The translations under genes were made by a program, and so were the position numbers. A DNA stretch of 64,000 nt, taken from Escherichia coli (GTDB lineage Bacteria; Pseudomonadota; Gammaproteobacteria; Enterobacterales; Enterobacteriaceae). Where the stretch lies: NCBI RefSeq assembly GCF_024223415.1, contig NZ_CP100500.1, one strand, 5' to 3'. This document shows positions 1-16,778 of this stretch, piece after piece. Under the pieces are notes generated by a model. It saw nothing but the letters and a program-made list of their open reading frames with translations, was not told the DNA's origin and searched no databases. How positions within the stretch are numbered: the first letter of the stretch is position 1; the number at the start of each line of letters is the position of its first letter.

Positions 1-1251
1 TTGTTGCTGAATATGGGGTCAACCCACGGCCTGGCGATGGTCTTTTCCATGCTGCTGGCGGCGATTATCTGGAACCTGGGAACGTGGTTCTTCGGTTTAC
101 CGGCCTCCAGTTCGCACACCTTGATTGGTGCGATTATCGGCATCGGTTTAACCAACGCGCTGTTAACCGGCTCATCGGTGATGGATGCGTTAAACCTGCG
201 TGAAGTGACCAAAATTTTCTCCTCGCTGATTGTTTCCCCTATCGTCGGCCTGGTCATTGCGGGAGGCCTGATATTCCTGCTGCGACGCTACTGGAGCGGA
301 ACGAAAAAGCGTGACCGTATTCACCGCATTCCGGAAGATCGCAAAAAGAAAAAAGGCAAACGTAAGCCGCCATTCTGGACGCGTATTGCGCTGATTGTTT
401 CCGCTGCGGGCGTGGCGTTTTCGCACGGCGCTAACGACGGGCAGAAAGGGATCGGCCTGGTGATGCTGGTACTGGTGGGGATTGCCCCTGCTGGCTTCGT
501 CGTCAATATGAACGCGTCCGGCTATGAAATTACCCGTACCCGCGATGCCGTTACCAACTTCGAACACTACCTGCAACAGCATCCTGAACTGCCGCAGAAG
601 TTGATTGCGATGGAACCTCCATTGCCTGCGGCATCGACTGATGGCATGCAAGTAACGGAGTTTCACTGTCATCCGGCAAATACCTTTGATGCGATTGCGC
701 GCGTTAAAACGATGCTGCCAGGCAATATGGAAAGTTACGAGCCGTTAAGCGTGAGTCAGCGCAGCCAGCTGCGCCGCATTATGCTGTGCATCTCTGATAC
801 CTCCGCGAAGCTGGCGAAACTGCCAGGCGTCAGTAAAGAAGACCAGAACCTGCTGAAAAAACTTCGCAGCGATATGTTAAGCACCATTGAGTACGCTCCG
901 GTGTGGATCATCATGGCGGTAGCACTGGCGCTCGGCATTGGCACCATGATTGGCTGGCGTCGTGTAGCGATGACCATCGGTGAGAAGATTGGTAAGCGCG
1001 GCATGACGTATGCGCAAGGCATGGCGGCACAAATGACGGCGGCAGTGTCTATCGGTCTTGCCAGTTATATTGGGATGCCCGTCTCCACAACACACGTCCT
1101 CTCGTCTGCAGTTGCAGGGACGATGGTGGTGGACGGCGGTGGGTTACAGCGTAAAACGGTAACCAGCATCCTGATGGCGTGGGTATTTACTTTACCGGCG
1201 GCGATTTTTCTTTCTGGTGGGCTGTACTGGATAGCATTGCAGTTGATTTAA
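1..1251 (+). CDS. pitB: Low-affinity inorganic phosphate transporter, PiT family (5' end truncated by window edge)
   Basis: ORF runs from window start; polytopic membrane protein matching PitA/PitB family; pitB rather than pitA inferred from synteny with yghT/yghS/yghR downstream. Confidence 0.8.
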
Positions 1252-1299
1252 CCTTCCTGAAAATGCCCGGTCCTGGCGATCGGGCATTTCCATTTTTGG

Positions 1300-1992
1300 C
1301 TAGTGATAACCACGCGCGGTCATAAAATCCGTAATCGCTTTTTCTGCATCAACCAGCACCTGTTCCAGTGGCTGATTGGCATCGATATCAACCAGTTGTG
1401 CACCACCAAAGGTTAACTGTGGCGTTATGGCAATCTTCCTCGCCAGCGATTCCCGTTTATGGTCGGGTTTACGCATGCAGGCAACTTCAAGGTCAACATT
1501 GAGTTTGATGACCAGATCAGGCTTATGGCTCGCCATCCAGTGAAACGCTTTACGTTCCTGGCTTGCCAGCCATGAGACAAAACGACCACCTTCAACGTTA
1601 GGTGGGAACACCGTACCATCGTAAGCGCCAGGAATTTGGTCCTGAGGATAACGGTCGGTTAGAACAATTAACCCGCGACGACGACAGGCAAGCATATGAC
1701 GAAAGCGCAGTAAGCGACGGGCGACAAACGCTGTAATTACCAGCGCCGGAACTGGTCCTGGCAATTTTTTTGCTGTTTTCACCTGATTTCGTTCAATTGT
1801 TTTATGTAAGGATTTTCCCATCAACGGTAATTTTGTCACTGCACGACCGACATTTCCGGCTTGTTTTCCTAAATGAACTCTTTCGGCAGCACCATATTTT
1901 TCGACAACGGTAATGAGATGTTCACACACCGTTGACTTGCCTGAACCATCGCTACCAATAACGGCAATTAATGGAGGTGTTATTGACTGCAT
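1300..1992 (-). CDS. yghT: P-loop NTPase / putative kinase, YghT-like
   Basis: 230 aa; N-terminal Walker [14 protein letters not shown]; paralogous to the two following genes; position matches recalled K-12 pitB-yghT order. Confidence 0.7.
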
Positions 1993-2165
1993 GAATATAT
2001 CCTTAAATTTAAATATCCATCCAAAATATTTATTTGGTTAATATGTTTTTATGAAAGCGTAATTCAGGTCAATGTCACAATTAACCATTGTCACAATAAG
2101 GTTGAACGGATATTCTGAGCACGGACCACGTAATATTCAATACATTATTTACTGCCGGGTTTTTC

Positions 2166-2879
2166 GTGAATCAACGTAATATGTCAATAATTAATTCCAC
2201 GCCAGTGCGTGTTATTGCCATTGTAGGATGTGATGGTTCAGGTAAATCGACCCTCACGGCAAGCCTGGTAAATGAACTGGCAGCAAGAATGCCAACAGAA
2301 CGCATTTATCTCGGGCAATCGTCCGGGCGAATTGGCGAATGGATTTCACAGCTCCCTGTTATTGGCGCACCTTTTGGGCGTTATCTGCGAAGTAAAGCGG
2401 CACATGTGCACGAAAAGCCCTCAACACCGCCTGGCAATATTACTGCACTGGTTATCTATCTGCTTTCCTGCTGGCGGGCGTACAAGTTTCGCAAAATGTT
2501 GTGTAGAAGCCAGCAAGGCCATCTGCTCATCACCGACCGCTACCCGCAGGTTGAAGTGCCGGGTTTTCGCTTTGATGGCCCGCAATTGGCAAAAACCACG
2601 GGCGGTAACGGTTGGATAAAAATGTTAAGGCAGCGCGAGTTGAAGCTGTACCAATGGATGGCGTCTTATTTACCCGTATTGTTGATTCGTCTTGGCATTG
2701 ATGAGCAAACCGCGTTTGCGCGTAAACCTGACCACCAACTGGCAGCGTTACAGGAAAAAATCGCCGTTACGCCGCAACTGACATTCAATGGCGCAAAGAT
2801 CCTTGAACTGGATGGTCGGCAACCAGCCGATGAAATTCTGCAAGCGTCACTACGCGCAATTCACGCCGCGCTTTCCTGA
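2166..2879 (+). CDS. yghS: P-loop NTPase / putative kinase, YghS-like
   Basis: 237 aa; Walker A IAIVGCDGSGKST; shared DRYPQ and RKPDH motifs with neighbours. Confidence 0.7.
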   Translation: MNQRNMSIINSTPVRVIAIVGCDGSGKSTLTASLVNELAARMPTERIYLGQSSGRIGEWISQLPVIGAPFGRYLRSKAAHVHEKPSTPPGNITALVIYLLSCWRAYKFRKMLCRSQQGHLLITDRYPQVEVPGFRFDGPQLAKTTGGNGWIKMLRQRELKLYQWMASYLPVLLIRLGIDEQTAFARKPDHQLAALQEKIAVTPQLTFNGAKILELDGRQPADEILQASLRAIHAALS

Positions 2880-2910
2880 TCACCAAAATGGATAGGGGAT
2901 GATTTAACGA

Positions 2911-3669
2911 ATGGATGCACTACAAACACAAACTGTTAATAGTACAACCGCGCCGCAGCCCAACTACATTCCGGGGCTGATTGCGGTGGTCGGGTGTGAT
3001 GGCACCGGTAAATCCACACTGACCACCGACCTGGTGAAATCGCTGCAACAACACTGGCAAACCGAGCGGCGCTATCTGGGGCTGCTCTCCGGCGAAGACG
3101 GCGACAAAATCAAACGATTGCCGTTGGTTGGCGTCTGGCTGGAACGGCGACTGGCGGCCAAATCCTCGAAAACCCAAAGCATGAAAACCAAATCTCCGGC
3201 GCTATGGGCGGCGGTGATTATGTACTGCTTCTCGCTGCGAAGAATGGCGAATCTACGCAAGGTTCAGCGACTGGCGCAAAGTGGCGTTCTGGTGGTCAGC
3301 GATCGCTTCCCGCAGGCTGAAATTTCGGGCTTTTATTATGACGGACCGGGGATTGGCGTCGAACGTGCGACCGGGAAAATCAGCATGTTTCTGGCGCAGC
3401 GCGAACGGCGTTTATACCAAAAAATGGCGCAATATCGCCCGGAATTAATTATTCGCCTGGGCATTGATATTGAGACTGCCATCTCCCGCAAGCCTGACCA
3501 TGACTATGCCGAGCTGCAGGACAAAATCGGCGTCATGTCGACGATTGGTTATAACGGCACAAAAATTCTTGAGATTGATTCCAGAGCGCCCTACAGCGAA
3601 GTGCTGGAACAGGCACAGAAGGCGGTTTCTCTGGTTGCCATCGTTTCTGACCGCCGAAGTTTAACTTAA
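2911..3669 (+). CDS. yghR: P-loop NTPase / putative kinase, YghR-like
   Basis: 252 aa; Walker A IAVVGCDGTGKST; same conserved blocks (DRFPQ, RKPDH) as yghS/yghT. Confidence 0.7.
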   Translation: MDALQTQTVNSTTAPQPNYIPGLIAVVGCDGTGKSTLTTDLVKSLQQHWQTERRYLGLLSGEDGDKIKRLPLVGVWLERRLAAKSSKTQSMKTKSPALWAAVIMYCFSLRRMANLRKVQRLAQSGVLVVSDRFPQAEISGFYYDGPGIGVERATGKISMFLAQRERRLYQKMAQYRPELIIRLGIDIETAISRKPDHDYAELQDKIGVMSTIGYNGTKILEIDSRAPYSEVLEQAQKAVSLVAIVSDRRSLT

Positions 3670-3714
3670 GGCTGGCGGGATACTTTTTACTATCAACGAT
3701 AAGGTCAGGCTGAA

Positions 3715-5064
3715 TTGGCGGGTTTTAACATCAAACATTGGTTTGCAGATGGCGCGTTTCGCACCATTATTCGCAATAGCGCCTGGTTAGGCTCCAGTAA
3801 TGTCGTGAGCGCCTTGCTGGGGCTGTTGGCGCTCTCGTGTGCCGGTAAAGGGATGACGCCCGCCATGTTTGGCGTACTGGTGATTGTGCAATCGTACGCC
3901 AAGTCGATCAGCGATTTTATTAAGTTTCAGACATGGCAGCTGGTGGTTCAGTACGGAACGCCAGCCTTGACCAACAATAATCCGCAGCAATTTCGCAATG
4001 TCGTCTCATTTTCCTTCTCGCTGGATATCGTCAGCGGCGCGGTGGCGATTGTCGGCGGCATTGCCTTACTGCCATTCCTTTCCCATTCATTAGGTCTGGA
4101 TGACCAAAGCTTTTGGCTGGCGGCGCTGTATTGCACGCTCATTCCTTCAATGGCTTCCTCCACGCCGACCGGCATTCTGCGTGCGGTAGATCGCTTTGAT
4201 TTGATTGCTGTACAGCAGGCGACGAAACCTTTTCTGCGCGCAGCGGGGAGCGTCGCAGCCTGGTATTTTGACTTTGGTTTTGCGGGTTTTGTTATTGCCT
4301 GGTACGTGTCGAATCTGGTTGGCGGCACCATGTACTGGTGGTTTGCCGCGCGCGAATTACGCCGCAGAAATATCCATAACGCCTTCAAATTGAATCTGTT
4401 TGAGTCTGCCCGACACATTAAAGGCGCGTGGAGTTTTGTCTGGTCAACCAACATTGCCCACTCCATCTGGTCGGCGCGTAACTCGTGCAGCACAGTGTTG
4501 GTGGGGATCGTGTTAGGACCCGCTGCCGCCGGGTTATTTAAAATCGCCATGACATTCTTCGACGCCGCCGGAACGCCAGCGGGTTTGCTGGGTAAAAGTT
4601 TTTACCCAGAGGTGATGCGTTTAGATCCGCGCACCACCAGACCGTGGTTGTTAGGTGTGAAGTCCGGTTTACTGGCGGGCGGAATCGGTATTCTGGTGGC
4701 GCTCGCGGTGTTGATCGTCGGCAAGCCGCTCATTTCGCTGGTGTTTGGCGTTAAGTATCTCGAAGCGTATGACCTGATTCAGGTGATGCTGGGCGCAATT
4801 GTGATTTCGATGCTGGGTTTCCCGCAGGAGTCATTGCTATTGATGGCGGGAAAACAGCGCGCTTTTCTCGTGGCGCAAACCATCGCCTCAATCGGCTACA
4901 TCGTATTGCTGTTCATGTTCTGTCATCTGTTTGGTGTGCTGGGAGCAGCGTTTGCTTACTTCGGTGGGCAATGTCTGGACGTGGCGCTCTCGTTAATTCC
5001 AACCTTAAAGGCATTTTTTCAGCGCCATTCCTTGCTTTATAACGCAGCCGGAGAGAAATCCTGA
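3715..5064 (+). CDS. yghQ: Polytopic inner-membrane protein, MOP-type flippase-like (YghQ-like); start codon uncertain
   Basis: Long hydrophobic ORF with multiple predicted TM helices; ORF track start is a TTG so the true start may lie downstream; stop overlaps next gene start (ATGA at 5062-5067). Confidence 0.55.
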   Translation: MAGFNIKHWFADGAFRTIIRNSAWLGSSNVVSALLGLLALSCAGKGMTPAMFGVLVIVQSYAKSISDFIKFQTWQLVVQYGTPALTNNNPQQFRNVVSFSFSLDIVSGAVAIVGGIALLPFLSHSLGLDDQSFWLAALYCTLIPSMASSTPTGILRAVDRFDLIAVQQATKPFLRAAGSVAAWYFDFGFAGFVIAWYVSNLVGGTMYWWFAARELRRRNIHNAFKLNLFESARHIKGAWSFVWSTNIAHSIWSARNSCSTVLVGIVLGPAAAGLFKIAMTFFDAAGTPAGLLGKSFYPEVMRLDPRTTRPWLLGVKSGLLAGGIGILVALAVLIVGKPLISLVFGVKYLEAYDLIQVMLGAIVISMLGFPQESLLLMAGKQRAFLVAQTIASIGYIVLLFMFCHLFGVLGAAFAYFGGQCLDVALSLIPTLKAFFQRHSLLYNAAGEKS

Positions 5065-5888
5065 TGATGAGAAAATATTTCCCGCTTGAGGCGAGCGGGC
5101 GTCTATTTGTTGCGATTGAAGAAGATGATGTCGTTGATGCACAGGTTAGTTTGCCGCCGACTATTGCACTAAGTTGTACCACCGAAATCATTCATGATAA
5201 TTACGCGTTATGCCTGCAATTCTGGCTCAATGGCGTTAATCGTCAGGAATTACTGCGTTTAGTTCGCAAACAAGCCAAAGGCGATGAGCTGACTGCTGAT
5301 GAGCGCAAACAATTTAAATACATGCGAGCGCGCTACAAGCACCTGCGTTTTGCGCAACGGCTGTATTTAAAGAAGCATCAGGCCGGATTTTTATTCGGCA
5401 AAACGACCGTTTTTCTGGGACGTTTTCAGGACGGGTTTCGTAACGGTAAGAAAAATATTGTGTCGTATTACGGCAACCTGTTACGGATTTATTTAAGCTC
5501 TCCGGTCTGGTCGTTGGTGAACTATTCATTACGCCATAGCCAGTTAGAAAGCGTAAGCGGTTTTATTGCCTATCGGCAAAAGCAAATGCATGCCCTGAAA
5601 GAGATAATTGCCAAACCGCGACTAACCGGCAGGGAATTTCATGATGTGCGAAAAATCATCAGCCAGCAGGTTTCTTATTACGACACCTTAAGATCGCTTG
5701 ATCCTGAAAATAAAGAGGCGTTACAGATTTCCCGTTTCCTCGCCGCCATTAATGGCCTGATGGGGGATAAACACGACGACATGGTGGCGGATGATATGGA
5801 AAACCGCCAGTCGTATGATGCACCGGTGGCGCAGGATAGCGATATTCGCCAGCGCTTAGAGCTGCTGATTTCGCGTTTTCCGCTATAA
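5064..5888 (+). CDS. Hypothetical protein (274 aa), translationally coupled to upstream flippase-like gene
   Basis: Intact ORF with ATG overlapping the upstream stop; no recognisable motif. Confidence 0.4.
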   Translation: MMRKYFPLEASGRLFVAIEEDDVVDAQVSLPPTIALSCTTEIIHDNYALCLQFWLNGVNRQELLRLVRKQAKGDELTADERKQFKYMRARYKHLRFAQRLYLKKHQAGFLFGKTTVFLGRFQDGFRNGKKNIVSYYGNLLRIYLSSPVWSLVNYSLRHSQLESVSGFIAYRQKQMHALKEIIAKPRLTGREFHDVRKIISQQVSYYDTLRSLDPENKEALQISRFLAAINGLMGDKHDDMVADDMENRQSYDAPVAQDSDIRQRLELLISRFPL

Positions 5889-5896
5889 CCGGAGCA

Positions 5897-6460
5897 ATGA
5901 TGTCATCTCGTTTGATTATTGCGCTGATTATCATGCTCTTAGCCCCGGGTGTGCAGGCACACAATTTCGTCACTGGCAAAACGGTTACCCCTGTTTATAT
6001 TCAGGAAGGCGGCGAGCTGCTTCTGAATAGCGACGACGAAATTCACTACCAAAAGTGGAACAGCACACAATTGGCGGGAAAAGTCCGCATTATCCAGTAT
6101 ATCGCCGGGCGTAAGTCGGCGAAGAAAAAGAACTCACTGTTAATTAAAGCGGTTGAAGCGGCAAACTTTCCGCAGGATCGTTTTCAGCCCACCACCATTG
6201 TGAACACCGATGATGCCATCTTTGGTACTGGCTATTTTGTTGTTGGCAAAATCGAAAAAAATAAACGCCGCTATCCGTGGGCGCAATTCGTTATCGACGG
6301 CAATGGACAGGGACGCGTTGCCTGGCGCTTGCCGGAGCAGAGTTCAACCATTCTGGTGCTGAATAAAGCCGGGCAAATTCAGTGGGCAAAGGACGGCAGC
6401 CTGACGCCGGTAGAGGTAGATCATGTCATTGCGCTGGCGCAGAAACTGATCAATGAATAA
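5897..6460 (+). CDS. Secreted/periplasmic protein with N-terminal signal peptide (possibly YtfJ-like)
   Basis: N-terminus MMSSRLIIALIIMLLAPGVQA is a typical Sec signal peptide; 187 aa soluble remainder. Confidence 0.45.
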   Translation: MMSSRLIIALIIMLLAPGVQAHNFVTGKTVTPVYIQEGGELLLNSDDEIHYQKWNSTQLAGKVRIIQYIAGRKSAKKKNSLLIKAVEAANFPQDRFQPTTIVNTDDAIFGTGYFVVGKIEKNKRRYPWAQFVIDGNGQGRVAWRLPEQSSTILVLNKAGQIQWAKDGSLTPVEVDHVIALAQKLINE

Positions 6461-6490
6461 AAAACTCAAAGGATTGAGGGCGTTAGTGAG

Positions 6491-7561
6491 ATGAAGCTGG
6501 TTGAACACTACATCATGCGTGGTACGCGCCGTCTGGTGCTGATTATCGTCGGTTTTCTGATCTTTATTTTCGCCAGCTACTCCGCACAGCGTTATCTGAC
6601 CGAAGCGGCAAATGGGACATTAGCACTTGATGTTGTGCTAGATATCGTTTTCTACAAAGTGCTGATTGCACTGGAGATGTTGTTACCTGTTGGACTGTAT
6701 GTGTCAGTTGGCGTGACGCTAGGGCAGATGTATACCGACTCGGAAATTACCGCTATCTCTGCGGCGGGGGGCAGTCCGGGACGCTTGTACAAAGCCGTTC
6801 TTTATCTGGCGATACCGCTAAGTATTTTTGTCACCCTTCTGTCGATGTATGGTCGTCCGTGGGCTTATGCGCAGATTTATCAACTGGAGCAGCAGTCGCA
6901 GTCGGAGCTGGATGTTCGCCAGTTGCGGGCAAAGAAATTTAACACTAACGATAACGGACGAATGATCCTTTCGCAGACGGTTGATCAGGATAATAATCGC
7001 CTGACTGACGCGCTGATTTATACTTCTACTGCCAATCGAACCCGCATTTTCCGCGCCCGTTCGGTTGATGTGGTTGACCCATCACCCGAGAAACCGACTG
7101 TTATGTTGCACAACGGCACTGCCTATCTTCTCGATCATCAGGGTCGTGACGACAACGAACAGATCTACCGTAATCTGCAATTACATCTGAATCCGCTGGA
7201 TCAAAGCCCTAACGTCAAACGCAAAGCGAAATCGGTCACGGAGCTGGCGCGCTCCGTCTTTCCAGCCGATCATGCCGAACTGCAATGGCGACAAAGCCGT
7301 GGCCTGACAGCATTGTTGATGGCGCTGCTGGCCATTTCATTAAGTCGGGTAAAACCGCGGCAGGGGCGATTTTCAACATTATTGCCACTGACGTTGCTGT
7401 TTATTGCCATTTTTTATGGCGGCGACGTCTGCCGTACGCTGGTGGCTAACGGCGCGATTCCCCTCATTCCTGGTTTGTGGTTAGTACCCGGACTCATGCT
7501 AATGGGCCTGCTGATGCTGGTCGCACGCGACTTCTCTTTGCTGCAGAAATTTTCCCGATGA
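6491..7561 (+). CDS. LptF/LptG (YjgP/YjgQ) family permease
   Basis: 356 aa; N-terminal region and TM topology typical of LptF/LptG family; paired with a second paralog immediately downstream. Confidence 0.6.
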   Translation: MKLVEHYIMRGTRRLVLIIVGFLIFIFASYSAQRYLTEAANGTLALDVVLDIVFYKVLIALEMLLPVGLYVSVGVTLGQMYTDSEITAISAAGGSPGRLYKAVLYLAIPLSIFVTLLSMYGRPWAYAQIYQLEQQSQSELDVRQLRAKKFNTNDNGRMILSQTVDQDNNRLTDALIYTSTANRTRIFRARSVDVVDPSPEKPTVMLHNGTAYLLDHQGRDDNEQIYRNLQLHLNPLDQSPNVKRKAKSVTELARSVFPADHAELQWRQSRGLTALLMALLAISLSRVKPRQGRFSTLLPLTLLFIAIFYGGDVCRTLVANGAIPLIPGLWLVPGLMLMGLLMLVARDFSLLQKFSR

Positions 7562-8637
7562 ATGTTTTCAGTCGCTATTTAATCCGTCATCTCTTTCTCG
7601 GTTTTGCCGCCGCCGCAGGGCTATTGCTGCCGCTTTTTACCACCTTCAACCTGATTAACGAACTGGATGATGTCAGCCCGGGCGGTTATCGCTGGACTCA
7701 GGCGGTGCTGGTGGTGCTAATGACCTTACCGCGCACACTGGTCGAACTTTCGCCGTTTATCGCCTTATTGGGAGGGATTGTTGGCCTGGGGCAGTTATCG
7801 AAAAACAGTGAGCTTACCGCCATTCGCAGCATGGGGTTTTCTATCTTCCGTATTGCACTGGTGGCGCTGGTTGCCGGGATATTGTGGACTGTTTCGTTAG
7901 GCGCGATAGATGAGTGGGTAGCGTCGCCGTTGCAGCAACAGGCGCTGCAAATCAAATCGACCGCCACTGCGTTGGGGGAGGACGATGATATTACCGGCAA
8001 TATGCTTTGGGCCAGGCGCGGTAATGAATTTGTAACGGTGAAATCGCTGAACGAGCAGGGCCAGCCGGTGGGCGTGGAGATTTTTCATTATCGTGACGAT
8101 CTCTCGCTCGAATCCTACATTTATGCACGCAGTGCCACCATTGAAGACGACAAAACGTGGGTCCTGCATGGTGTGAATCATAAAAAATGGCTGAATGGCA
8201 AAGAAACGCTGGAAACATTAGATAATCTTGCCTGGCAATCGGCCTTCACCAGTATGGATCTTGAAGAGCTATCGATGCCGGGGAATACTTTTTCTGTCCG
8301 TCAGCTTAATCATTACATCCATTATTTGCAGGAAACCGGGCAACCCAGCAGCGAATACCGCCTTGCACTGTGGGAAAAACTGGGGCAACCCATCCTGACC
8401 CTGGCGATGATTTTGCTGGCTGTGCCGTTTACCTTTAGTGCCCCGCGCTCGCCAGGGATGGGTAGCCGTCTCGCTGTAGGCGTCATCGTTGGCTTACTCA
8501 CCTGGATCAGCTATCAAATCATGGTCAATCTGGGATTGCTATTTGCGTTAAGCGCACCTGTTACCGCGCTCGGTTTACCGATAGCGTTTGTGCTGGTGGC
8601 GTTGAGCCTGGTGTATTGGTATGACAGACAACATTAA
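7558..8637 (+). CDS. LptF/LptG (YjgP/YjgQ) family permease, second paralog
   Basis: ATG at 7558 overlaps the upstream stop (ATGA); N-terminus MNVFSRYLIRHLFLGF typical of the family; ORF-track start at 7477 is probably an upstream extension. Confidence 0.6.
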   Translation: MNVFSRYLIRHLFLGFAAAAGLLLPLFTTFNLINELDDVSPGGYRWTQAVLVVLMTLPRTLVELSPFIALLGGIVGLGQLSKNSELTAIRSMGFSIFRIALVALVAGILWTVSLGAIDEWVASPLQQQALQIKSTATALGEDDDITGNMLWARRGNEFVTVKSLNEQGQPVGVEIFHYRDDLSLESYIYARSATIEDDKTWVLHGVNHKKWLNGKETLETLDNLAWQSAFTSMDLEELSMPGNTFSVRQLNHYIHYLQETGQPSSEYRLALWEKLGQPILTLAMILLAVPFTFSAPRSPGMGSRLAVGVIVGLLTWISYQIMVNLGLLFALSAPVTALGLPIAFVLVALSLVYWYDRQH

Positions 8638-8671
8638 ACCCGCCGTGGCGCAACACCACGGCGGGCTCACA

Positions 8672-9844
8672 TTACTGCTTCAGAGTAGCAAATGCCTGAA
8701 TGATGGCATCGATTTGCTCACGACTGTGGGCAGCGTTTACGCTACAGCGCAGCAGCGTGATGCCTGCAGGCGCGGCAGGTGGCAGGATAAGATTCACATA
8801 AACGCCCAGCGAAATAAGCTCGCGCCAGATGCGTAAACCTTCCTCTTTCGAACCGATTATTACCGGCACTACCGGACTAATATGTGAACTTAACTCATAA
8901 CCCAGTTTTTGCAGACCGTCATACAGATGGTTGGCGTTATCCATCAGCTTTTGCCGCAGCTCTGGTTGTGTGGCAATGGTTCTTAACGACGAGCGCACGG
9001 TCGCAATGCAGGACGGAGAAGGAGAGGCGGTAAAAATATACGGGCGGCTGCCGTAGCGCAGCACTTCCATCGCTTCCGAACCGACAGCAAAACCGCCAAT
9101 CGAGGCCAGACTTTTACTGAAGGTGCCAACGATAATATCCACATCATCTTCAACGCCGACAGCTTCAGCCAGTCCGCGCCCCGTTGCGCCTAACACGCCA
9201 AACGAATGCGCTTCATCGACAATCAAATAACCACCGAGACGACGTTTGATATCAACAATTTCCGCCAGCGGCGCAACGTCACCGAGCATGCTGTAGATAC
9301 CCTCAACGATGATAATCGCCTCTTTCGCCCGTTCACCGAGGCGAACCATGCGCCGTTCCAGATCTTTAGCATCGTTATGGCGGAAACGAATAATTTCCGC
9401 GCCACCGAGAGAACAGGCGTCATAAATACTGGCGTGGCTGTCAGCATCCAGTAACACCACGGCGTTATGGTCGGCAAGTGCGCTGATGACGCCTAAATTA
9501 GCGGTATAACCGGTTGAAAAAACGATAGCGGTAGGGCGATTGAAAAACTCAGCAATCTCTTTCTCTAACGCCAGATGCGGCGCATAACTGCCGTTTGCCA
9601 TACGAGAACCGGTGGTGCCGGTGCCTTGGGCCGCTAACGCTGCCTGACCTTCGGCGATGGCATCATGATTGAAGGTTAATCCGAGATAATTATTGGTCCC
9701 GGCCAGAATCACTTTTTTATTGCCGATCCGGCCTTCGGTGGCGGAATACACTTCATCAATACAGGTGCCAAACGGTGTTAACCCGTTGTCACTAAATTGC
9801 AGTCGCTCGCCAGCAAGGCGCGCATATTTATCGTATAGCCCCAT
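8672..9844 (-). CDS. PLP-dependent alpha-oxoamine synthase, serine palmitoyltransferase-like
   Basis: 390 aa; PLP-lysine block GTFSKSLASIGGF, which resembles the SPT signature more than BioF/Kbl; start overlaps ACP stop. Confidence 0.6.
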   Translation of the reverse strand: MGLYDKYARLAGERLQFSDNGLTPFGTCIDEVYSATEGRIGNKKVILAGTNNYLGLTFNHDAIAEGQAALAAQGTGTTGSRMANGSYAPHLALEKEIAEFFNRPTAIVFSTGYTANLGVISALADHNAVVLLDADSHASIYDACSLGGAEIIRFRHNDAKDLERRMVRLGERAKEAIIIVEGIYSMLGDVAPLAEIVDIKRRLGGYLIVDEAHSFGVLGATGRGLAEAVGVEDDVDIIVGTFSKSLASIGGFAVGSEAMEVLRYGSRPYIFTASPSPSCIATVRSSLRTIATQPELRQKLMDNANHLYDGLQKLGYELSSHISPVVPVIIGSKEEGLRIWRELISLGVYVNLILPPAAPAGITLLRCSVNAAHSREQIDAIIQAFATLKQ

Positions 9845-10092
9845 TATTTATTCTCCAGCCATGGAAGTAGAGTTTCCATTAATTGCGCAGGGGTTTTGAC
9901 ATCCAGCAGAATATTAATAGGAATGGAAATATCGAATCTGTCTTCCAGCATCATTAAGAGATCCATCACTTTGATCGACTCCAGGCCAAGATCGTTGACG
10001 AGATCGCTGTCGGGCTTAATTTCCACACCGTTTTCGACCAAATCCTGTAAACAGGAAAGGATGTAATCCATTACTATTTCACGATTTACCAT
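9844..10092 (-). CDS. Acyl carrier protein
   Basis: 82 aa; phosphopantetheine attachment-like motif DLGLESIKVMDL. Confidence 0.6.
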   Translation of the reverse strand: MVNREIVMDYILSCLQDLVENGVEIKPDSDLVNDLGLESIKVMDLLMMLEDRFDISIPINILLDVKTPAQLMETLLPWLENK

Positions 10093-10123
10093 AGAAACGT
10101 TAACACACCTTTAAACAAGACAA

Positions 10124-11038
10124 TCAAAATAGCCCGTTGCGTAATGCGTGTTCCAGGCTAATCCCGGGAAACCAATTAATATCTTCAGAAATACGGTTAT
10201 TACTTGCCGACCAGTCGGCGTGGGTTAATTCACGAATTTTCGAGCGGGTCAGCATAGGTTCTTTACCTGCCAGGCGACTCAACGCGGTACTGATATCCGC
10301 AAGGCAGGTGAGTACCGGCAGAGGAATGCCAACCATCCGCACAGAACCACAACGGGCGTCGGCGGCAAGCTGTCGTACGCGTTGCCAGTCATAGCCGCCA
10401 GCGACGCCATCGCATAATTCATAGGTTTGCGTCTGTACAGTTTCGGCGCTTAACCACTGACCCACTGCTTGCGCAAAATCGGTGACGTGCAGGAAAGAGA
10501 GTTGTGTATCTGGCGCACCAAGTCGTGGCAGCAGGCCGCGCAGCATCCAATAAAACAGCGGTTTTAACTCTTTATCGCCGGGACCATACACGGCTGTCGG
10601 GCGAAAAACGCCCAGCGTAATTTTGTCAGCCATTGCAGTCAGCCGTTGTTCGGCGACGTATTTGGAATTTGCGTACCAGGAGAGTTCGGGATGGCGCGCC
10701 GCCAGCGAAGAGATAAACAGAAAACGTTGGCAAAAGCCGCTCTCTTTTGCTGCTTGCATCAGGCGCAGGCTGCCGTCAACGTTACAGTGGGTAAAAATCT
10801 CTTCTTTGTGTCCGCGCACTTGCCCGGCGCAATGGACCACCGCGCTGGCTCCGGCAACCAGTTCGCTAAGCGAATGTGTATCTTCCAGCGAACCGCGCAC
10901 CCAAGTAAGATTATCATTGACGTGAGCGCGGGCAGTACGCGTCAATGCGCGAACGTGAAAGCCGCGGGCGAGCAGGTTATCGATAATATATTTACCGATA
11001 AACCCGGTAGCGCCCGTCACCGCGACAGTTTGATTCAT
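10124..11038 (-). CDS. NAD(P)-dependent epimerase/dehydratase-family reductase
   Basis: Rossmann motif VAVTGATGFIGKYI directly after internal Met; ATG at 11038 overlaps stop of upstream ligase gene (ATGA). ORF-track N-terminal extension to 11248 considered spurious. Confidence 0.6.
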   Translation of the reverse strand: MNQTVAVTGATGFIGKYIIDNLLARGFHVRALTRTARAHVNDNLTWVRGSLEDTHSLSELVAGASAVVHCAGQVRGHKEEIFTHCNVDGSLRLMQAAKESGFCQRFLFISSLAARHPELSWYANSKYVAEQRLTAMADKITLGVFRPTAVYGPGDKELKPLFYWMLRGLLPRLGAPDTQLSFLHVTDFAQAVGQWLSAETVQTQTYELCDGVAGGYDWQRVRQLAADARCGSVRMVGIPLPVLTCLADISTALSRLAGKEPMLTRSKIRELTHADWSASNNRISEDINWFPGISLEHALRNGLF

Positions 11039-12783
11039 GCCAGGGATTCCTGCACATGAAGACTGGCAGCATAAGCCTTCTGATAACGTTTTTTCGCTTC
11101 CGCACGGGCAGGCTTGCCGGAGGACGTTCGGGGAATACTGTGGGGCGGCAACAGATCGATAGCCGCGGTCACGCCAAATTCGCTTTGGATCCGTGCTGCC
11201 AGCGCGTGGATAAGCTGCCCGCGACGTTCTTCGTCGCTGATCCGACACTGGATCTGCAAAATGATTTTTTCCTGGGCGGTAACAAAAGCAATCGCATCGC
11301 CAGAATGAATTTCCGGTTCCTGTTCCGCTATATATTCAATATCCTGCGGCCAGATATTACGGCCACGAATAATAATCAGATCTTTAATGCGTCCGGTGAC
11401 ATACAGATAACCGTCCAGCAGATAACCGAGGTCGCCGGTGTCTAACCAGCCCGTCGCGGCAATCTCGTCTTGCGAAGCCTGGTCGCCAAAGTAACCGCTC
11501 ATCAGGCTAGGGCCGGAGATGCAAATATGGCCTACCACACGTTCCGCGACAGGTATACCTGCTTCATTGCGGATTTCAATGCCATGTTCCGGCAACGCTT
11601 TACCGCAGTTGACGAAAGTCGATACGGCGCGTGTCTCTGCACCCGGCGCGACGGCTTTACCCTGATATTCGAGGATGTCGCGATCCACTTCGTTAACCAC
11701 AACCCCGGAGGCTTCATCAGAGAAGCTGACAGCCAGCGCATTTTCTGCCAGTCCGTAGCACGGCATGAAAGTTTTATTGTCAAAGTTAACCTGACGGAAA
11801 CATTCAGCGAATTGATGGAGTTGTTCTGCGGAGATGGGTTCTGCACCAATACCAGCGACGCGCCAGCAGGAAAGATCCAGTTCAGCGAGATCTTTTTCAT
11901 TCACGCGGCGCTGGCACAATTCATAGCCAAACGGCGGCGCAACGGAAACGGTGCCGCGATTTTTACTGATCAATTTAAGCCATTGCAGAGGACGCATGGC
12001 AAAATCCTGAGTGCGCAAATAATCTACTGAAAGTTGCGTGGCGACGGGGGTCAGGAGAAAGCCGACCAGTCCCATATCATGGTAGAAAGGCAGCCAGGAG
12101 ACGCAGCGGTCGCCAGGGCGTAATTTAATGCCGTCGTGGCTTATAGCACGTAGATTAGCCATCACTTCGCGATGGGTGATAATGACGCCACGGGGAAAAC
12201 GGGTGCTGCCGGAGGTGTACTGGAGGTAGGCGATATCGTCCGGAACTGGGCGCTGGAGCGCAACATCAGCTTCCGGTAATGCCTTAAACCAGGCATGGCT
12301 TAATACATGCAATTCGGGGTTGTTATGCGTGGCGGCATTGACCAGCGGCAACCACTCATCACCAGTGATAATGGCAGCGGGCTGGCAACTTGCCAGTAAA
12401 CCCTGCAGTTTGGCGCTCCAGGAATCCCGCTGACCGACGCCCATTGGAATCGCCAACGGGACGGCGACTAAGCCGGCATACTGGCAGGAAAAAAAAGCCT
12501 CTACGAACCCGCTACTGGTTTCGGCAATCAGCGCCACGCGATCGCCTTTTTTCAGGTTTAGCGATAACAACCGCTTCGCACCAGCTTCGGCACGCACTTT
12601 TAACGTCTGATATTCCAGTTGATCTTCAAGTTGGCAACGTCTGTCATAAAAATTCATTCCAGCGCTACTCAGAGCGGCGTAGTCCAAAGCATCAACCAGC
12701 GTTGGAAAATCGGCATAGCGCATAGGTAGGGAATGCGTAAAGATTTTATTAGACATATACACCACGAAAAAATTGGATATCAA
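11035..12783 (-). CDS. Fatty acyl-AMP ligase / acyl-CoA (or acyl-ACP) synthetase, ANL adenylating superfamily
   Basis: 582 aa; adenylate-forming enzyme blocks (YLQYTSGSTRFPRGV, GYGLAE-like, C-terminal conserved lysine region); first gene of a 4-gene minus-strand operon. Confidence 0.65.
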   Translation of the reverse strand: MISNFFVVYMSNKIFTHSLPMRYADFPTLVDALDYAALSSAGMNFYDRRCQLEDQLEYQTLKVRAEAGAKRLLSLNLKKGDRVALIAETSSGFVEAFFSCQYAGLVAVPLAIPMGVGQRDSWSAKLQGLLASCQPAAIITGDEWLPLVNAATHNNPELHVLSHAWFKALPEADVALQRPVPDDIAYLQYTSGSTRFPRGVIITHREVMANLRAISHDGIKLRPGDRCVSWLPFYHDMGLVGFLLTPVATQLSVDYLRTQDFAMRPLQWLKLISKNRGTVSVAPPFGYELCQRRVNEKDLAELDLSCWRVAGIGAEPISAEQLHQFAECFRQVNFDNKTFMPCYGLAENALAVSFSDEASGVVVNEVDRDILEYQGKAVAPGAETRAVSTFVNCGKALPEHGIEIRNEAGIPVAERVVGHICISGPSLMSGYFGDQASQDEIAATGWLDTGDLGYLLDGYLYVTGRIKDLIIIRGRNIWPQDIEYIAEQEPEIHSGDAIAFVTAQEKIILQIQCRISDEERRGQLIHALAARIQSEFGVTAAIDLLPPHSIPRTSSGKPARAEAKKRYQKAYAASLHVQESLA

Positions 12784-13126
12784 AAATAAAATGACAATAA
12801 TGCGGTGGATTATATAGGCATAAAAGATAAATGAGATAGTATTTTCATCGGTGTGAAAATGAACATTGATTTAAATAATGAGTTTAAGTTTTTTGTTTTT
12901 ATTGTGAATGATATTTAATTTATGAATATATTAAGAAGAAGCCTTGTCCGGTCGCCTTAAATCGACAAAAGGCATTGTGGCGCTTCTGCGTAGTCGCTGA
13001 CCCTATCGTAATCATTAATAAATACTATTTATTCGTCGTTTGTATTCATTGGGTTGATTATTAAGATGCCGTTCGTTGCTGTTGCAACCTGTTTTTCACC
13101 GTTAATTATTTGTTACCCACAGAACT

Positions 13127-14269
13127 ATGGAATGCGATCTGCTGATGATCAAAATTGAAAAAGTAATTAATAAAAACGACCTTAAGGCATTTATCGCTTT
13201 TCCGTCATCACTTTATCCCGACGATCCAAACTGGATACCCCCTTTATTCATTGAACGCAGCGAGCATTTGTCTGCGAAGAATCCGGGGACGGACCATATC
13301 ATCTGGCAGGCGTGGGTGGCAAAAAAAGCGGGGCAGATAGTTGGGCGTATTACCGCGCAAATAGATACCATGCACCGTGAGCGTTACGGTGAAGATACCG
13401 GTCATTTCGGAATGATTGACGCCATTGATGATCCGCAGGTTTTTGCCGCGTTGTTTGGCGCAGCGGAAGCGTGGTTGAAGTCACAAGGTGCAAGTAAGAT
13501 CAGCGGGCCTTTCAGCCTGAATATCAATCAGGAAAGCGGATTACTGATTGAAGGTTTTGACACACCACCCTGTGCGATGATGCCACACGGCAAACCGTGG
13601 TATGCCGCGCATATTGAACAATTGGGTTATCACAAAGGCATTGATTTACTGGCGTGGTGGATGCAGCGAACCGATCTCACTTTCTCTCCGGCGCTAAAAA
13701 AACTGATGGATCAGGTGCGTAAAAAGGTGACCATTCGCTGCATCAATCGCCAGCGGTTTGCCGAAGAGATGCAGATCCTGCGTGAGATTTTCAACTCTGG
13801 CTGGCAGCACAACTGGGGATTTGTGCCGTTTACCGAACATGAATTCGCGACCATGGGCGATCAACTTAAATATCTGGTGCCGGACGATATGATCTACATC
13901 GCTGAGATTGATTCTGCACCCTGCGCGTTTATTGTCGGCTTGCCGAACATCAACGAGGCGATTGCCGATCTGAACGGATCGCTCTTTCCCTTCGGCTGGG
14001 CAAAATTGCTGTGGCGTTTGAAAGTCAGCGGTGTGCGAACTGCACGAGTACCGCTGATGGGCGTGCGGGACGAGTATCAGTTCAGCCGCATCGGCCCGGT
14101 GATTGCGCTGTTATTGATTGAAGCCTTACGCGATCCGTTTGCCCGCCGGAAGATCGATGCGCTGGAGATGTCATGGATCCTCGAAACCAATACAGGCATG
14201 AATAACATGCTGGAACGCATTGGGGCGGAGCCGTACAAGCGTTACCGATTGTATGAAAAGCAGATTTAA
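13127..14269 (+). CDS. yghO: YghO-like acyltransferase (GNAT-like fold?), intact
   Basis: 380 aa intact ORF divergent from the ligase operon across an AT-rich intergenic region; corresponds by position to yghO, recalled as a pseudogene in K-12. Confidence 0.5.
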   Translation: MECDLLMIKIEKVINKNDLKAFIAFPSSLYPDDPNWIPPLFIERSEHLSAKNPGTDHIIWQAWVAKKAGQIVGRITAQIDTMHRERYGEDTGHFGMIDAIDDPQVFAALFGAAEAWLKSQGASKISGPFSLNINQESGLLIEGFDTPPCAMMPHGKPWYAAHIEQLGYHKGIDLLAWWMQRTDLTFSPALKKLMDQVRKKVTIRCINRQRFAEEMQILREIFNSGWQHNWGFVPFTEHEFATMGDQLKYLVPDDMIYIAEIDSAPCAFIVGLPNINEAIADLNGSLFPFGWAKLLWRLKVSGVRTARVPLMGVRDEYQFSRIGPVIALLLIEALRDPFARRKIDALEMSWILETNTGMNNMLERIGAEPYKRYRLYEKQI

Positions 14270-14275
14270 TACCAG

Positions 14276-15028
14276 CTAACTCTGGTTCATCTCCAGCGGC
14301 ACCGCCGAGCGAATCAAATGGTGGCCTTCCAGCTCGATATCGTGGAGATTCTTTTTCACGGTCCGCACATGATCGCGTGCTGCGCGCTGGGCGACGTGCG
14401 GCAGCCGCTGCAACACCGCGTTGTAGATCCGCGCATGCTGGCGATCGATCTGCTTTTTTTGCTGTGGTCGATGGTAGAGATTATTTACGCTGGCAAACAC
14501 TGAATTAAACATCAGGTCGGTCAATGATTGCAGCGTAAACACCAGCACCTGATTGTGAGAAGCCTGACAAATGGCGAGATGGAAAGCGTGATCCAACTGC
14601 GCATGTTCGATCAGCGAAATCTCTTTGTTGTTCTCACTGGCGGCGAGCATTTTTTCATAACAGCGGGTTATCACAACAAAATCAGCCTGCGTTCCCAGCG
14701 TTGCCGATTCGCCCTCCAGCAATGCGCGAACGTCGAGCAGATCGTACAGCGTTCGCGGCTGCGTGCTGAACAGATGAATTAGCGGGCTGGTGTCCTGCAC
14801 CCGATTAAGCCGTGCGACACGAGAATCGCGACCCTGCGCCGTTTCAATAATCCCGCGCCCGCGCAGCACGGTCAGCCCTTCACGCAGTGCGGAGCGTGAG
14901 AAGCCGAGCTTTTCACACAGTCGACGTTCCGAGGGAAGCGGCTGACCGACCTTCAGTACGCCGTCGATAATTAACCGTTCGATACTCTCTGCAACCACTT
15001 CGCAAATAGGGCGACGTTCATCTTTCAT
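14276..15028 (-). CDS. glcC: GntR/FadR-family transcriptional regulator of the glycolate operon
   Basis: Start taken at internal Met MKDERRPI...; wHTH N-domain and FadR-like C-domain; divergent from glcD. Confidence 0.85.
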   Translation of the reverse strand: MKDERRPICEVVAESIERLIIDGVLKVGQPLPSERRLCEKLGFSRSALREGLTVLRGRGIIETAQGRDSRVARLNRVQDTSPLIHLFSTQPRTLYDLLDVRALLEGESATLGTQADFVVITRCYEKMLAASENNKEISLIEHAQLDHAFHLAICQASHNQVLVFTLQSLTDLMFNSVFASVNNLYHRPQQKKQIDRQHARIYNAVLQRLPHVAQRAARDHVRTVKKNLHDIELEGHHLIRSAVPLEMNQS

Positions 15029-15278
15029 TCCCGGACCTCGTGCACAGGTAGGACCAATTTTTCTGTTCTTAACTCGCAAAACACGCACATCACGTAAGTG
15101 ATTATGTTACATCAATTTAACATTGAGTTAACCAAGACAAGGTCACAGAGCTGGAAAAAAAATGGTCTGACCGGTAGCTAAAGAGATAGACGAAAACGAA
15201 AAGCCCGCTTAATAACTGTTCACAGAAGCAGCGCGCAAAAATCAGCTGCCACACAACACAACTAAGCGAAGCCTACTC

Positions 15279-16778
15279 ATGAGCATCTTGTACGAAGAGC
15301 GTCTTGATGGCGCTTTACCCGATGTCGACCGCACATCGGTACTGATGGCACTGCGTGAGCATGTCCCTGGACTGGAGATCCTGCATACCGATGAGGAGAT
15401 CATTCCTTACGAGTGTGACGGGTTGAGCGCGTATCGCACGCGTCCATTACTGGTTGTTCTGCCTAAGCAAATGGAACAGGTGACAGCGATTCTAGCTGTC
15501 TGCCATCGCCTGCGTGTACCGGTGGTGACCCGTGGTGCTGGCACCGGGCTTTCTGGTGGCGCGCTGCCGCTGGAAAAAGGTGTGTTGTTGGTGATGGCGC
15601 GCTTTAAAGAGATCCTCGACATTAACCCCGTTGGTCGCCGCGCGCGCGTGCAGCCAGGCGTGCGTAACCTGGCGATCTCCCAGGCCGTTGCACCGCATAA
15701 TCTCTACTACGCACCGGACCCTTCCTCACAAATCGCCTGTTCCATTGGCGGCAACGTGGCAGAAAATGCCGGCGGCGTCCACTGCCTGAAATATGGTCTG
15801 ACCGTACATAACCTGCTGAAAATTGAAGTGCAAACGCTGGATGGCGAGGCACTGACGCTGGGATCGGATGCGCTGGATTCGCCTGGTTTTGACCTGCTGG
15901 CGTTGTTCACCGGATCGGAAGGTATGCTCGGCGTGACCACCGAAGTGACGGTAAAACTGCTGCCGAAGCCGCCCGTGGCGCGGGTTCTGTTAGCAAGCTT
16001 TGACTCGGTAGAAAAAGCCGGACTTGCGGTTGGTGACATCATCGCTAATGGCATTATCCCCGGCGGGCTGGAGATGATGGATAACCTGTCGATCCGCGCG
16101 GCGGAAGATTTTATTCATGCCGGTTATCCCGTCGACGCCGAAGCGATTTTGTTATGCGAACTGGACGGCGTGGAGTCTGACGTACAGGAAGACTGCGAGC
16201 GGGTTAACGACATCTTGTTGAAAGCGGGCGCGACTGACGTCCGTCTGGCACAGGACGAAGCAGAGCGCGTACGTTTCTGGGCCGGTCGCAAAAATGCGTT
16301 CCCGGCGGTAGGACGTATCTCCCCGGATTACTACTGCATGGATGGCACCATCCCGCGTCGCGCCCTGCCTGGCGTACTGGAAGGCATTGCCCGTTTATCG
16401 CAGCAATATGATTTACGTGTTGCCAACGTCTTTCATGCCGGAGATGGCAACATGCACCCGTTAATCCTTTTCGATGCCAACGAACCCGGTGAATTTGCCC
16501 GCGCGGAAGAGTTGGGCGGGAAGATCCTCGAACTCTGCGTTGAAGTTGGCGGCAGCATCAGTGGGGAACATGGCATCGGGCGAGAAAAAATCAATCAAAT
16601 GTGCGCCCAGTTCAATAGCGATGAAATCACGACCTTCCATGCGGTCAAGGCGGCGTTTGACCCCGATGGTTTGCTGAACCCTGGGAAAAACATTCCCACG
16701 CTACACCGCTGTGCTGAATTTGGTGCCATGCATGTGCATCACGGTCATTTACCTTTTCCTGAACTGGAGCGCTTCTGA
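15279..16778 (+). CDS. glcD: Glycolate oxidase FAD-linked subunit
   Basis: 499 aa; FAD-binding PCMH-type domain (RGAGTGLSGGA); first gene of glcDEFGB. Confidence 0.9.
   Translation: MSILYEERLDGALPDVDRTSVLMALREHVPGLEILHTDEEIIPYECDGLSAYRTRPLLVVLPKQMEQVTAILAVCHRLRVPVVTRGAGTGLSGGALPLEKGVLLVMARFKEILDINPVGRRARVQPGVRNLAISQAVAPHNLYYAPDPSSQIACSIGGNVAENAGGVHCLKYGLTVHNLLKIEVQTLDGEALTLGSDALDSPGFDLLALFTGSEGMLGVTTEVTVKLLPKPPVARVLLASFDSVEKAGLAVGDIIANGIIPGGLEMMDNLSIRAAEDFIHAGYPVDAEAILLCELDGVESDVQEDCERVNDILLKAGATDVRLAQDEAERVRFWAGRKNAFPAVGRISPDYYCMDGTIPRRALPGVLEGIARLSQQYDLRVANVFHAGDGNMHPLILFDANEPGEFARAEELGGKILELCVEVGGSISGEHGIGREKINQMCAQFNSDEITTFHAVKAAFDPDGLLNPGKNIPTLHRCAEFGAMHVHHGHLPFPELERF

Follow-up and report, generated by a model that had tools for sequence, protein, structure and literature searches.

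The window analysed here is a stretch of 64,000 nucleotides of Escherichia coli DNA (contig NZ_CP100500.1, assembly GCF_024223415.1), and our subject is a 13-gene locus near its beginning that is very likely the form which the proteobacterial sphingolipid (dihydroceramide) pathway takes in E. coli. Over the first 17 kb of the window the gene order is pitB, yghT, yghS, yghR, yghQ, the biosynthetic cluster, yghO, glcC and glcDEF. The initial annotation of this DNA had read positions 3715-14269 as a cluster resembling the bacterial ceramide pathway. We checked the window proteins for the intactness of their open reading frames and against the RefSeq annotation of a 99.9% identical genome (NCTC10444). 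The genes listed by the initial annotation were all recovered, intact and at the coordinates given for them; the RefSeq annotation agrees with the window genes and the window holds no frameshifts, with all 13 genes from yghT to yghO being intact. One open reading frame, that of a 274-residue protein at 5064-5888 on the plus strand, was absent from that gene list, and the functional locus is probably wider than the range first proposed, extending from yghT (1300) to the end of yghO (14269). Its features are as follows:

1300-1992, minus strand: yghT, P-loop thymidylate-kinase-like protein and paralog of YghR and YghS; it lies outside the range of the initial annotation and is proposed as a member of the extended locus
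2166-2879, plus strand: yghS, P-loop kinase-like paralog (weak match to dTMP-kinase-like models)
2911-3669, plus strand: yghR, P-loop kinase-like paralog (weak match to dTMP-kinase-like models)
3715-5064, plus strand: yghQ, candidate flippase of the MOP superfamily, Wzx-like (weak match to NF007773; multiple hydrophobic segments)
5064-5888, plus strand: 274-residue "hypothetical protein" (all-helical, CHAD-like predicted fold)
5900-6460, plus strand: YtfJ-family periplasmic protein (TIGR01626, 211 bits against a cut-off of 151; signal peptide)
6491-7561, plus strand: LptF paralog, here LptF2 (TIGR04407, 318 bits against a cut-off of 230)
7558-8637, plus strand: LptG paralog, here LptG2 (TIGR04408, 308 bits against a cut-off of 240)
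8635-8669, no strand: GC-rich hairpin, likely a bidirectional terminator, exactly between the convergent stops of lptG2 and spt
8672-9844, minus strand: spt, predicted pyridoxal phosphate (PLP)-dependent serine palmitoyltransferase (390 residues; Lys244 in the motif GTFSKS, residues 240-245)
9844-10092, minus strand: acpR, specialised acyl carrier protein (acyl carrier protein models match below their cut-offs)
10124-11038, minus strand: cerR/epi, extended short-chain dehydrogenase/reductase (SDR) proposed for the keto reduction step (epimerase and reductase models match weakly)
11035-12723, minus strand: aasR, fatty acyl-AMP ligase/acyl-AcpR synthetase (NF006624, 867 bits against a cut-off of 600)
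12724-13126, no strand: AT-rich intergenic stretch separating the divergent genes aasR and yghO, presumed to hold promoter and regulatory sequences
13127-14269, plus strand: yghO, predicted bCerS-type N-acyltransferase with a tandem GNAT fold, divergent from the aasR operon

The cluster itself has already been published, and hence is no discovery of ours: Padilla-Gomez et al. (2022) studied it in E. coli BL21(DE3) as ECD_02850-ECD_02854 (PMC9386255). The BL21(DE3) locus is the same locus in another strain, with identical gene order from yghT to glcC and proteins that are 97-100% identical to those of the window. In that work AcpR was found to carry 4'-phosphopantetheine, AasR to acylate AcpR but not coenzyme A (CoA) or the housekeeping acyl carrier protein, and Spt to prefer the acyl-AcpR substrate, yielding 3-oxo-sphinganine, while yghO (under the name 'aca') and the epimerase gene were named as counterparts of Caulobacter CC_1154 and CC_1164, which are needed for dihydroceramide (PMC9386255). 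The paper deals with five genes: yghQ, the 274-residue protein, the YtfJ-like protein, LptF2/LptG2 and yghRST are not discussed in it, and no native sphingolipid is shown (PMC9386255). What the present analysis adds is the CHAD-like fold of the 274-residue protein, the boundary of the locus at yghT and the recognition of a conserved kinase/flippase/CHAD-like module.

The 390-residue alpha-oxoamine synthase, which RefSeq already names 'spt: serine palmitoyltransferase', is by its sequence a serine palmitoyltransferase (SPT), as judged from its score over the cut-off of the SPT equivalog model, its scores under those of the sister families and its placement in the SPT clade. It obtains 600 bits on the NCBIfam equivalog NF047599 (cut-off 500), and falls under the cut-offs for BioF (334 vs 426), Kbl (298 vs 460), CqsA (221 vs 428) and 5-aminolevulinate synthase (220 vs 339). 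A phylogeny against BioF, Kbl and SPT had been suggested with the initial annotation; in our neighbour-joining tree (200 bootstraps; SPTs from twelve lineages with E. coli K-12 BioF and Kbl), the SPT clade including the E. coli enzyme is recovered at 100% bootstrap and excludes E. coli Kbl and BioF. The closest solved structure is the SPT of Sphingomonas paucimobilis (2jg2; 377 bits, 47% identity), as against approximately 204 bits for Kbl, 175 for BioF and 207 for cysteate acyltransferase. Residues H137, D210, H213, K244 and R366 are invariant with the S. paucimobilis enzyme, so that the PLP-site residues, the lysine as well as His and Asp, are kept. Identity is 47-59% to SPTs and 30% to E. 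coli BioF and Kbl. The alternative identity, namely a spare synthase of the BioF, Kbl or CqsA type, or else a cysteate acyltransferase, with a product that would be no sphingoid base, draws on the common PLP fold family and on matches to the BioF/Kbl/CqsA-type models at E-values of 1e-65 to 1e-100; we nevertheless give it hardly any credence, as the enzyme lies under all those curated cut-offs and over that for SPT. These candidates were ruled out by the scores, the structure matches and the tree, and the proposal is refuted for practical purposes by the published assay, in which the BL21 enzyme (ECD_02854, 99.5% identical to that of the window) made 3-oxo-sphinganine from serine, its preferred amino-acid substrate (PMC9386255).

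The soluble homodimeric SPTs of S. paucimobilis and S. wittichii (2jg2, 2x8u) are among the closest known systems, the 47% identity to the former extending over the full length. They differ from the E. coli enzyme in two respects. The latter favours acyl-AcpR over acyl-CoA (PMC9386255). Further, in the pairwise alignment Arg378 of the S. paucimobilis enzyme corresponds to a leucine, residue 354, in E. coli Spt. Arg378 has been implicated in binding the serine carboxylate. Despite the leucine at the equivalent position, the E. coli enzyme was active in the published assay (PMC9386255). Separately, we noted a 443-residue 'eukaryotic' protein in eukprot (P0047) that shares 98% identity with E. 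coli Spt and in addition matches an acyl carrier protein domain; it is most likely E. coli contamination in which acpR and spt were called as a single gene.

All five genes of the dihydroceramide cassette (aasR, cerR/epi, acpR, spt and bcerS/aca) are present at the locus, with the order aasR-cerR-acpR-spt kept. AcpR, which is 100% identical to BL21 ECD_02853, has a candidate 4'-phosphopantetheine attachment site at Ser39 within the motif LGLESI. CerR displays the SDR motifs GxxGxxG (residues 9-15) and YxxxK (122-126), and is 97.0% identical to BL21 CerR; its identity to the counterparts at the CC_1164 position of Caulobacter loci is 32-34%. AasR is 98.0% identical to BL21 ECD_02851; its start is annotated inconsistently among genomes, giving either 562 residues (MRYADF, at 12723) or 569 residues (MSNKIF, at 12744), and the open frame extends to a TTG at 12783. 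For YghO, sequence searches against Pfam, NCBIfam and PDB returned no match, and the predicted structure and a fold search were informative: its AlphaFold2 model (predicted local distance difference test score 89) finds tandem GNATs as the best Foldseek matches, at E-values around 1e-15. In addition, YghO is 43% identical over residues 3-380 (E-value 8e-97) to the gene at the Caulobacter CC_1154 (bCerS) position, and 99.2% identical to its BL21 counterpart.

We surveyed 80 spt loci, from one genome per species, by tblastn with each window protein. The aasR-cerR-acpR-spt run accompanied by a nearby yghO-type gene was found in Enterobacterales, other Gammaproteobacteria and Betaproteobacteria, Nitrospira, relatives of Geobacter, and Caulobacter. 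The Enterobacterales with the cassette comprise Hafnia, Pseudocitrobacter, Serratia, Shimwellia, Mangrovibacter, Erwinia, Citrobacter youngae, Pluralibacter, Cedecea, Rosenbergiella and Tatumella. In most lineages the yghO-type gene lies divergently upstream; in Caulobacter it follows on the same strand, approximately 7 kb downstream. The Caulobacter sphingolipid region has reportedly been the subject of studies by Olea-Ozuna (2021) and Stankeviciute (2022). Three Caulobacter loci (L070, L075 and L077) keep aasR-cerR-acpR-spt in the order seen in the window and in BL21, and the Caulobacter loci reproduce the published succession of flippase, aasR, cerR, acpR and spt, followed by LptF2, LptG2 and bCerS. 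The parallel with Caulobacter drawn in the initial annotation thus holds for both the gene order and the neighbouring YghO-type acyltransferase, and its ceramide-pathway interpretation of 3715-14269 is supported by the Spt identity, this gene order and the YghO homology.

In C. crescentus, the region CC_1152-CC_1168 shares with E. coli the aasR-cerR-acpR-spt run, a bCerS homolog (43%) and a MOP flippase homolog (27%). It also contains a second LptF/LptG pair, but the identity of these proteins to the E. coli LptF2/LptG2 is low (23-25%). Caulobacter has LptC2 and the head-group genes CpgA, CpgB and CpgC, the ceramide kinase CpgB being of the LCB5/diacylglycerol (DAG)-kinase type (PMC10331486). 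The E. coli locus lacks these; in their place it has the P-loop kinase-like proteins YghR, YghS and YghT, the CHAD-like protein and a member of the YtfJ family.

The locus was next compared across E. coli genomes, as had also been suggested at the outset. The aasR-spt operon is present at a coverage of at least 80% in 4067 of 5426 complete E. coli genomes (75%), and the whole 12.5-kb stretch in 4045. The block had initially been described as strain-variable: it does vary among strains, with the qualification that most strains have the cluster. Positions 4784-13166 of the window (8383 bp) are missing from K-12-type genomes, where a 1195-bp IS5 stands in their place, a deletion that cuts yghQ short and takes away the start of yghO; this agrees with the initial annotation, which had only an IS5 between yghQ and a yghO pseudogene in K-12. 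In a second deletion class the gene for the 274-residue protein is fused to gspM of a nearby type II secretion cluster (hit H24, with the annotated GspM fusion P0152). In one of approximately 4150 matching records, the cluster, or a part of it, is on a plasmid. To gauge selection, the ratio of nonsynonymous to synonymous substitution rates (dN/dS) was calculated for each variable gene of the yghT-yghO locus by comparing this window with a divergent E. coli, strain 100248. It is 0.03-0.14 for each of these genes, acpR being identical in both strains, and the neighbouring glcC gives 0.028. The cluster is hence kept by selection and is not decaying.

The two Lpt-related permeases passed the cut-offs of the equivalog models for LptF and LptG, and share only 29% (LptF2) and 28% (LptG2) identity with the housekeeping proteins. 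Both retain the coupling-helix glutamate matching LptF E84 and LptG E88, residues that couple the permeases to LptB. They thus resemble the LptB2FG lipopolysaccharide (LPS) extractor, and differ from it in this low identity, in having no LptB, LptC or LptA of their own in the locus, and in being dispensable, as K-12 lacks the pair. With housekeeping lptFG encoded elsewhere, LptF2/LptG2 are not the essential LPS extractor of the cell. LptF/LptG pairs occur near spt in many lineages, including Caulobacter, for which sphingolipid export via second Lpt proteins has been proposed (PMC11324152). Carried over by analogy to E. coli, this proposal would have the LptF/LptG paralogs serve in export to the outer membrane. 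The gene preceding them encodes the YtfJ-family protein, which has an N-terminal hydrophobic segment (residues 1-22) and in our survey occurs within the spt locus only in Enterobacterales.

The remaining genes form a module of kinase-like, flippase and CHAD-like proteins. YghR, YghS and YghT are mutual paralogs (34-45% identical; YghT is 34-36% identical to the other two) with only a faint similarity to thymidylate kinase. The alignment of the family shows invariant Walker A (GxDGxGKS), DRxP and RKPDH motifs. A relationship to the Caulobacter ceramide kinase CpgB was considered and ruled out, CpgB being of the LCB5/DAG-kinase type and YghR/S/T being P-loop proteins. For the other genes of the locus the NCBIfam scans gave no match to a lipid-kinase model, nor did Pfam for the four tried, these scans not including a direct search for the DAG-kinase domain or GGDG motif. 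In the Caulobacter loci, the gene at the CC_1166 position encodes a protein with 27% identity to YghQ (E-value 4e-34). A literature search on the function of yghQRST returned nothing relevant.

The 274-residue protein found no family by sequence searches against Pfam, NCBIfam and PDB; with respect to the Pfam CHAD family (PF05235) in particular, neither it nor 24 of its homologs gave a Pfam match up to an E-value of 10. Its predicted fold is confident, and has CHAD domains as its best fold match, with the helical bundle characteristic of CHAD. CHAD domains are polyphosphate-binding helical modules. The likeness to the known examples (6qv5, 3e0s, 6rn5 and the C-terminal domain of E. coli YgiF, 5a61) is one of predicted fold; unlike them, the 274-residue protein has no Pfam CHAD match and no CYTH domain, fused or adjoining. 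Going by the structural model, then, it is a CHAD-like protein, newly recognised here, a label that appears in none of the databases queried bar one stray UniRef name. A database of 5.8 billion proteins contains 344 homologs, and the invariant residues of the family include H93, H105, H193, H237, R88, R95, K92 and R196.

In Enterobacterales, Xanthomonadales and Betaproteobacteria a homolog of yghT lies close to spt. Every enterobacterial locus of sufficient length has yghT, yghS, yghR, yghQ and the gene for the 274-residue protein within 10 kb of spt, and all five are also near spt in Luteibacter, Dyella, a Rhodocyclaceae metagenome-assembled genome (MAG) and a Methylotenera MAG (L060). In a further Methylotenera MAG (L036) and another betaproteobacterial MAG (L041), the kinase-like genes are accompanied by a relative of yghQ, a homolog of the 274-residue protein being undetected there by tblastn. 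The arrangement of the module genes near spt varies among these lineages. A profile search recovered 2604 representative clusters of the P-loop family, and many of its members are fused to an NTP_transf_5-like domain (e.g. P0287). In one protein (P0373) the YghR-like domain is fused to a MOP flippase as well as an NTP_transf_5-like domain, and in another (P0333) to a GT4 glycosyltransferase. Such fusions link the family to the assembly of envelope glycoconjugates.

Putting these components together, a pathway of five steps can be proposed. AasR would activate a free fatty acid as acyl-AMP and load it onto AcpR, and Spt would then condense L-serine with the acyl-AcpR to give 3-oxo-sphinganine; both reactions have been shown biochemically for the 98-100% identical BL21(DE3) proteins (PMC9386255). 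By orthology to the Caulobacter ceramide genes, YghO would add the N-acyl chain and CerR would reduce the 3-keto group to yield dihydroceramide. The order of N-acylation and keto reduction is disputed in the literature. In the fourth step YghR, YghS and YghT, together with the CHAD-like protein and YghQ, might modify the head group, probably with a phosphate or sugar-phosphate, and flip the lipid across the inner membrane. Finally, LptF2/LptG2 might extract the lipid, with the housekeeping LptB borrowed as their ATPase, so that it can be passed on to the outer membrane. The last two steps we infer from the gene neighbourhood only. In its fullest form, the proposal is that the 13 genes from yghT to yghO make up the full pathway for an anionic (phospho- or sugar-phospho-) sphingolipid that is placed in the outer membrane of about three-quarters of E. 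coli strains and of many other Enterobacterales; this we regard as a speculative extension, with the odds clearly against it.

Several observations weigh against the proposed pathway, and two rival explanations build on them. In our literature search we came upon no sphingolipid reported for unmodified E. coli, and empty-vector extracts of BL21(DE3), in which no SPT product was seen, served as the negative control in the SPT assays (PMC9386255). The use of these extracts as a control suggests that the chromosomal cluster is probably silent under standard laboratory growth in lysogeny broth. If this were carried to its extreme, the cluster would be a cryptic remnant, intact but never expressed, that yields no lipid in E. 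coli whatever the natural conditions, a picture to which its repeated loss (by the IS5 deletion of K-12, in the gspM-fusion class and by its absence from approximately 25% of genomes) could also be fitted. Such a remnant is however difficult to reconcile with dN/dS values of 0.03-0.14 for every gene, similar to that of the neighbouring glcC (0.028), with a window free of frameshifts, with the conservation of the whole block across many enterobacterial genera and with the activity of the recombinant enzymes (PMC9386255); we consider it improbable.

The later steps of the dihydroceramide route face objections of a different kind. The fourth has no precedent, since the Caulobacter CpgB belongs to the LCB5/DAG-kinase type and is unrelated to YghR/S/T, and for the fifth, annotation and NCBIfam scans of the 13-gene locus revealed no ABC ATPase and no LptB-, LptC- or LptA-like gene. 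Moreover, three loci (L088:8261-14053, L094:9262-13055 and L095:8100-12952) combine two YghR-like genes with YghQ-like and CHAD-like genes, the CHAD-like homolog in L088 being confirmed by hhalign with a probability of 99.95, and have no spt in the DNA read, which reaches at most 10 kb to each side and ends sooner in two of the three contigs. More distant P-loop relatives are encoded in polysaccharide clusters alongside Wzy_C and glycosyltransferases. The module is thus a unit in its own right, whose link to ceramide is not exclusive. From these loci, together with the fusions of YghR-like domains to a MOP flippase or GT4 and the YghO-like gene (36% identical) that lies directly upstream of the module in L095, one could argue that the ceramide genes and the yghQ/yghRST/CHAD-like genes are two separate adjoining systems, with the latter building or exporting some other envelope glycoconjugate, possibly along with YghO. 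Against such a division, the module is found within 10 kb of spt, in rearranged gene order, in at least three separate proteobacterial orders; ceramide synthesis in Caulobacter depends on the YghO orthologs found at the CC_1154 position; and spt may be situated elsewhere in the genomes of L088, L094 and L095, as its partner genes are in Sphingomonas. We hold two adjoining systems to be unlikely, if the most serious of the rivals, and the coupling of the module to ceramide in E. coli, on the strength of its gene neighbourhood, to be plausible.

E. coli is the reference organism for membrane lipids and is usually described as being without sphingolipids. On the reading of the locus as a dihydroceramide pathway, most natural E. 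coli would possess an intact sphingolipid pathway under purifying selection, which K-12 has lost to an IS5 deletion. Were the product indeed an anionic sphingolipid, its head-group chemistry, with three P-loop kinase-like enzymes and a CHAD-like protein unlike the CpgABC of Caulobacter, would be new; its delivery would proceed via a second LptFG pair that hijacks the LPS bridge; and the picture of an E. coli envelope with three phospholipids would be an artefact of studying K-12. A natively made lipid could influence the barrier function of the outer membrane, how well the cell withstands polymyxin and detergents, its phage receptors and the immune signalling of the host, the last being a known target of Bacteroides sphingolipids.

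With regard to regulatory elements, a promoter and terminator scan of the region gave counts, those of terminator-like sites included, that do not exceed the ones in shuffled sequence, and an Rfam scan of window positions 1-16000, inclusive of the aasR/yghO intergenic region, matched no RNA family. The GC content falls to 0.417 in the 1-kb interval 12501-13500. Only the hairpin at 8635-8669 stands out from the terminator scan, with a stem of 16 pairs, 10 of which are GC pairs.

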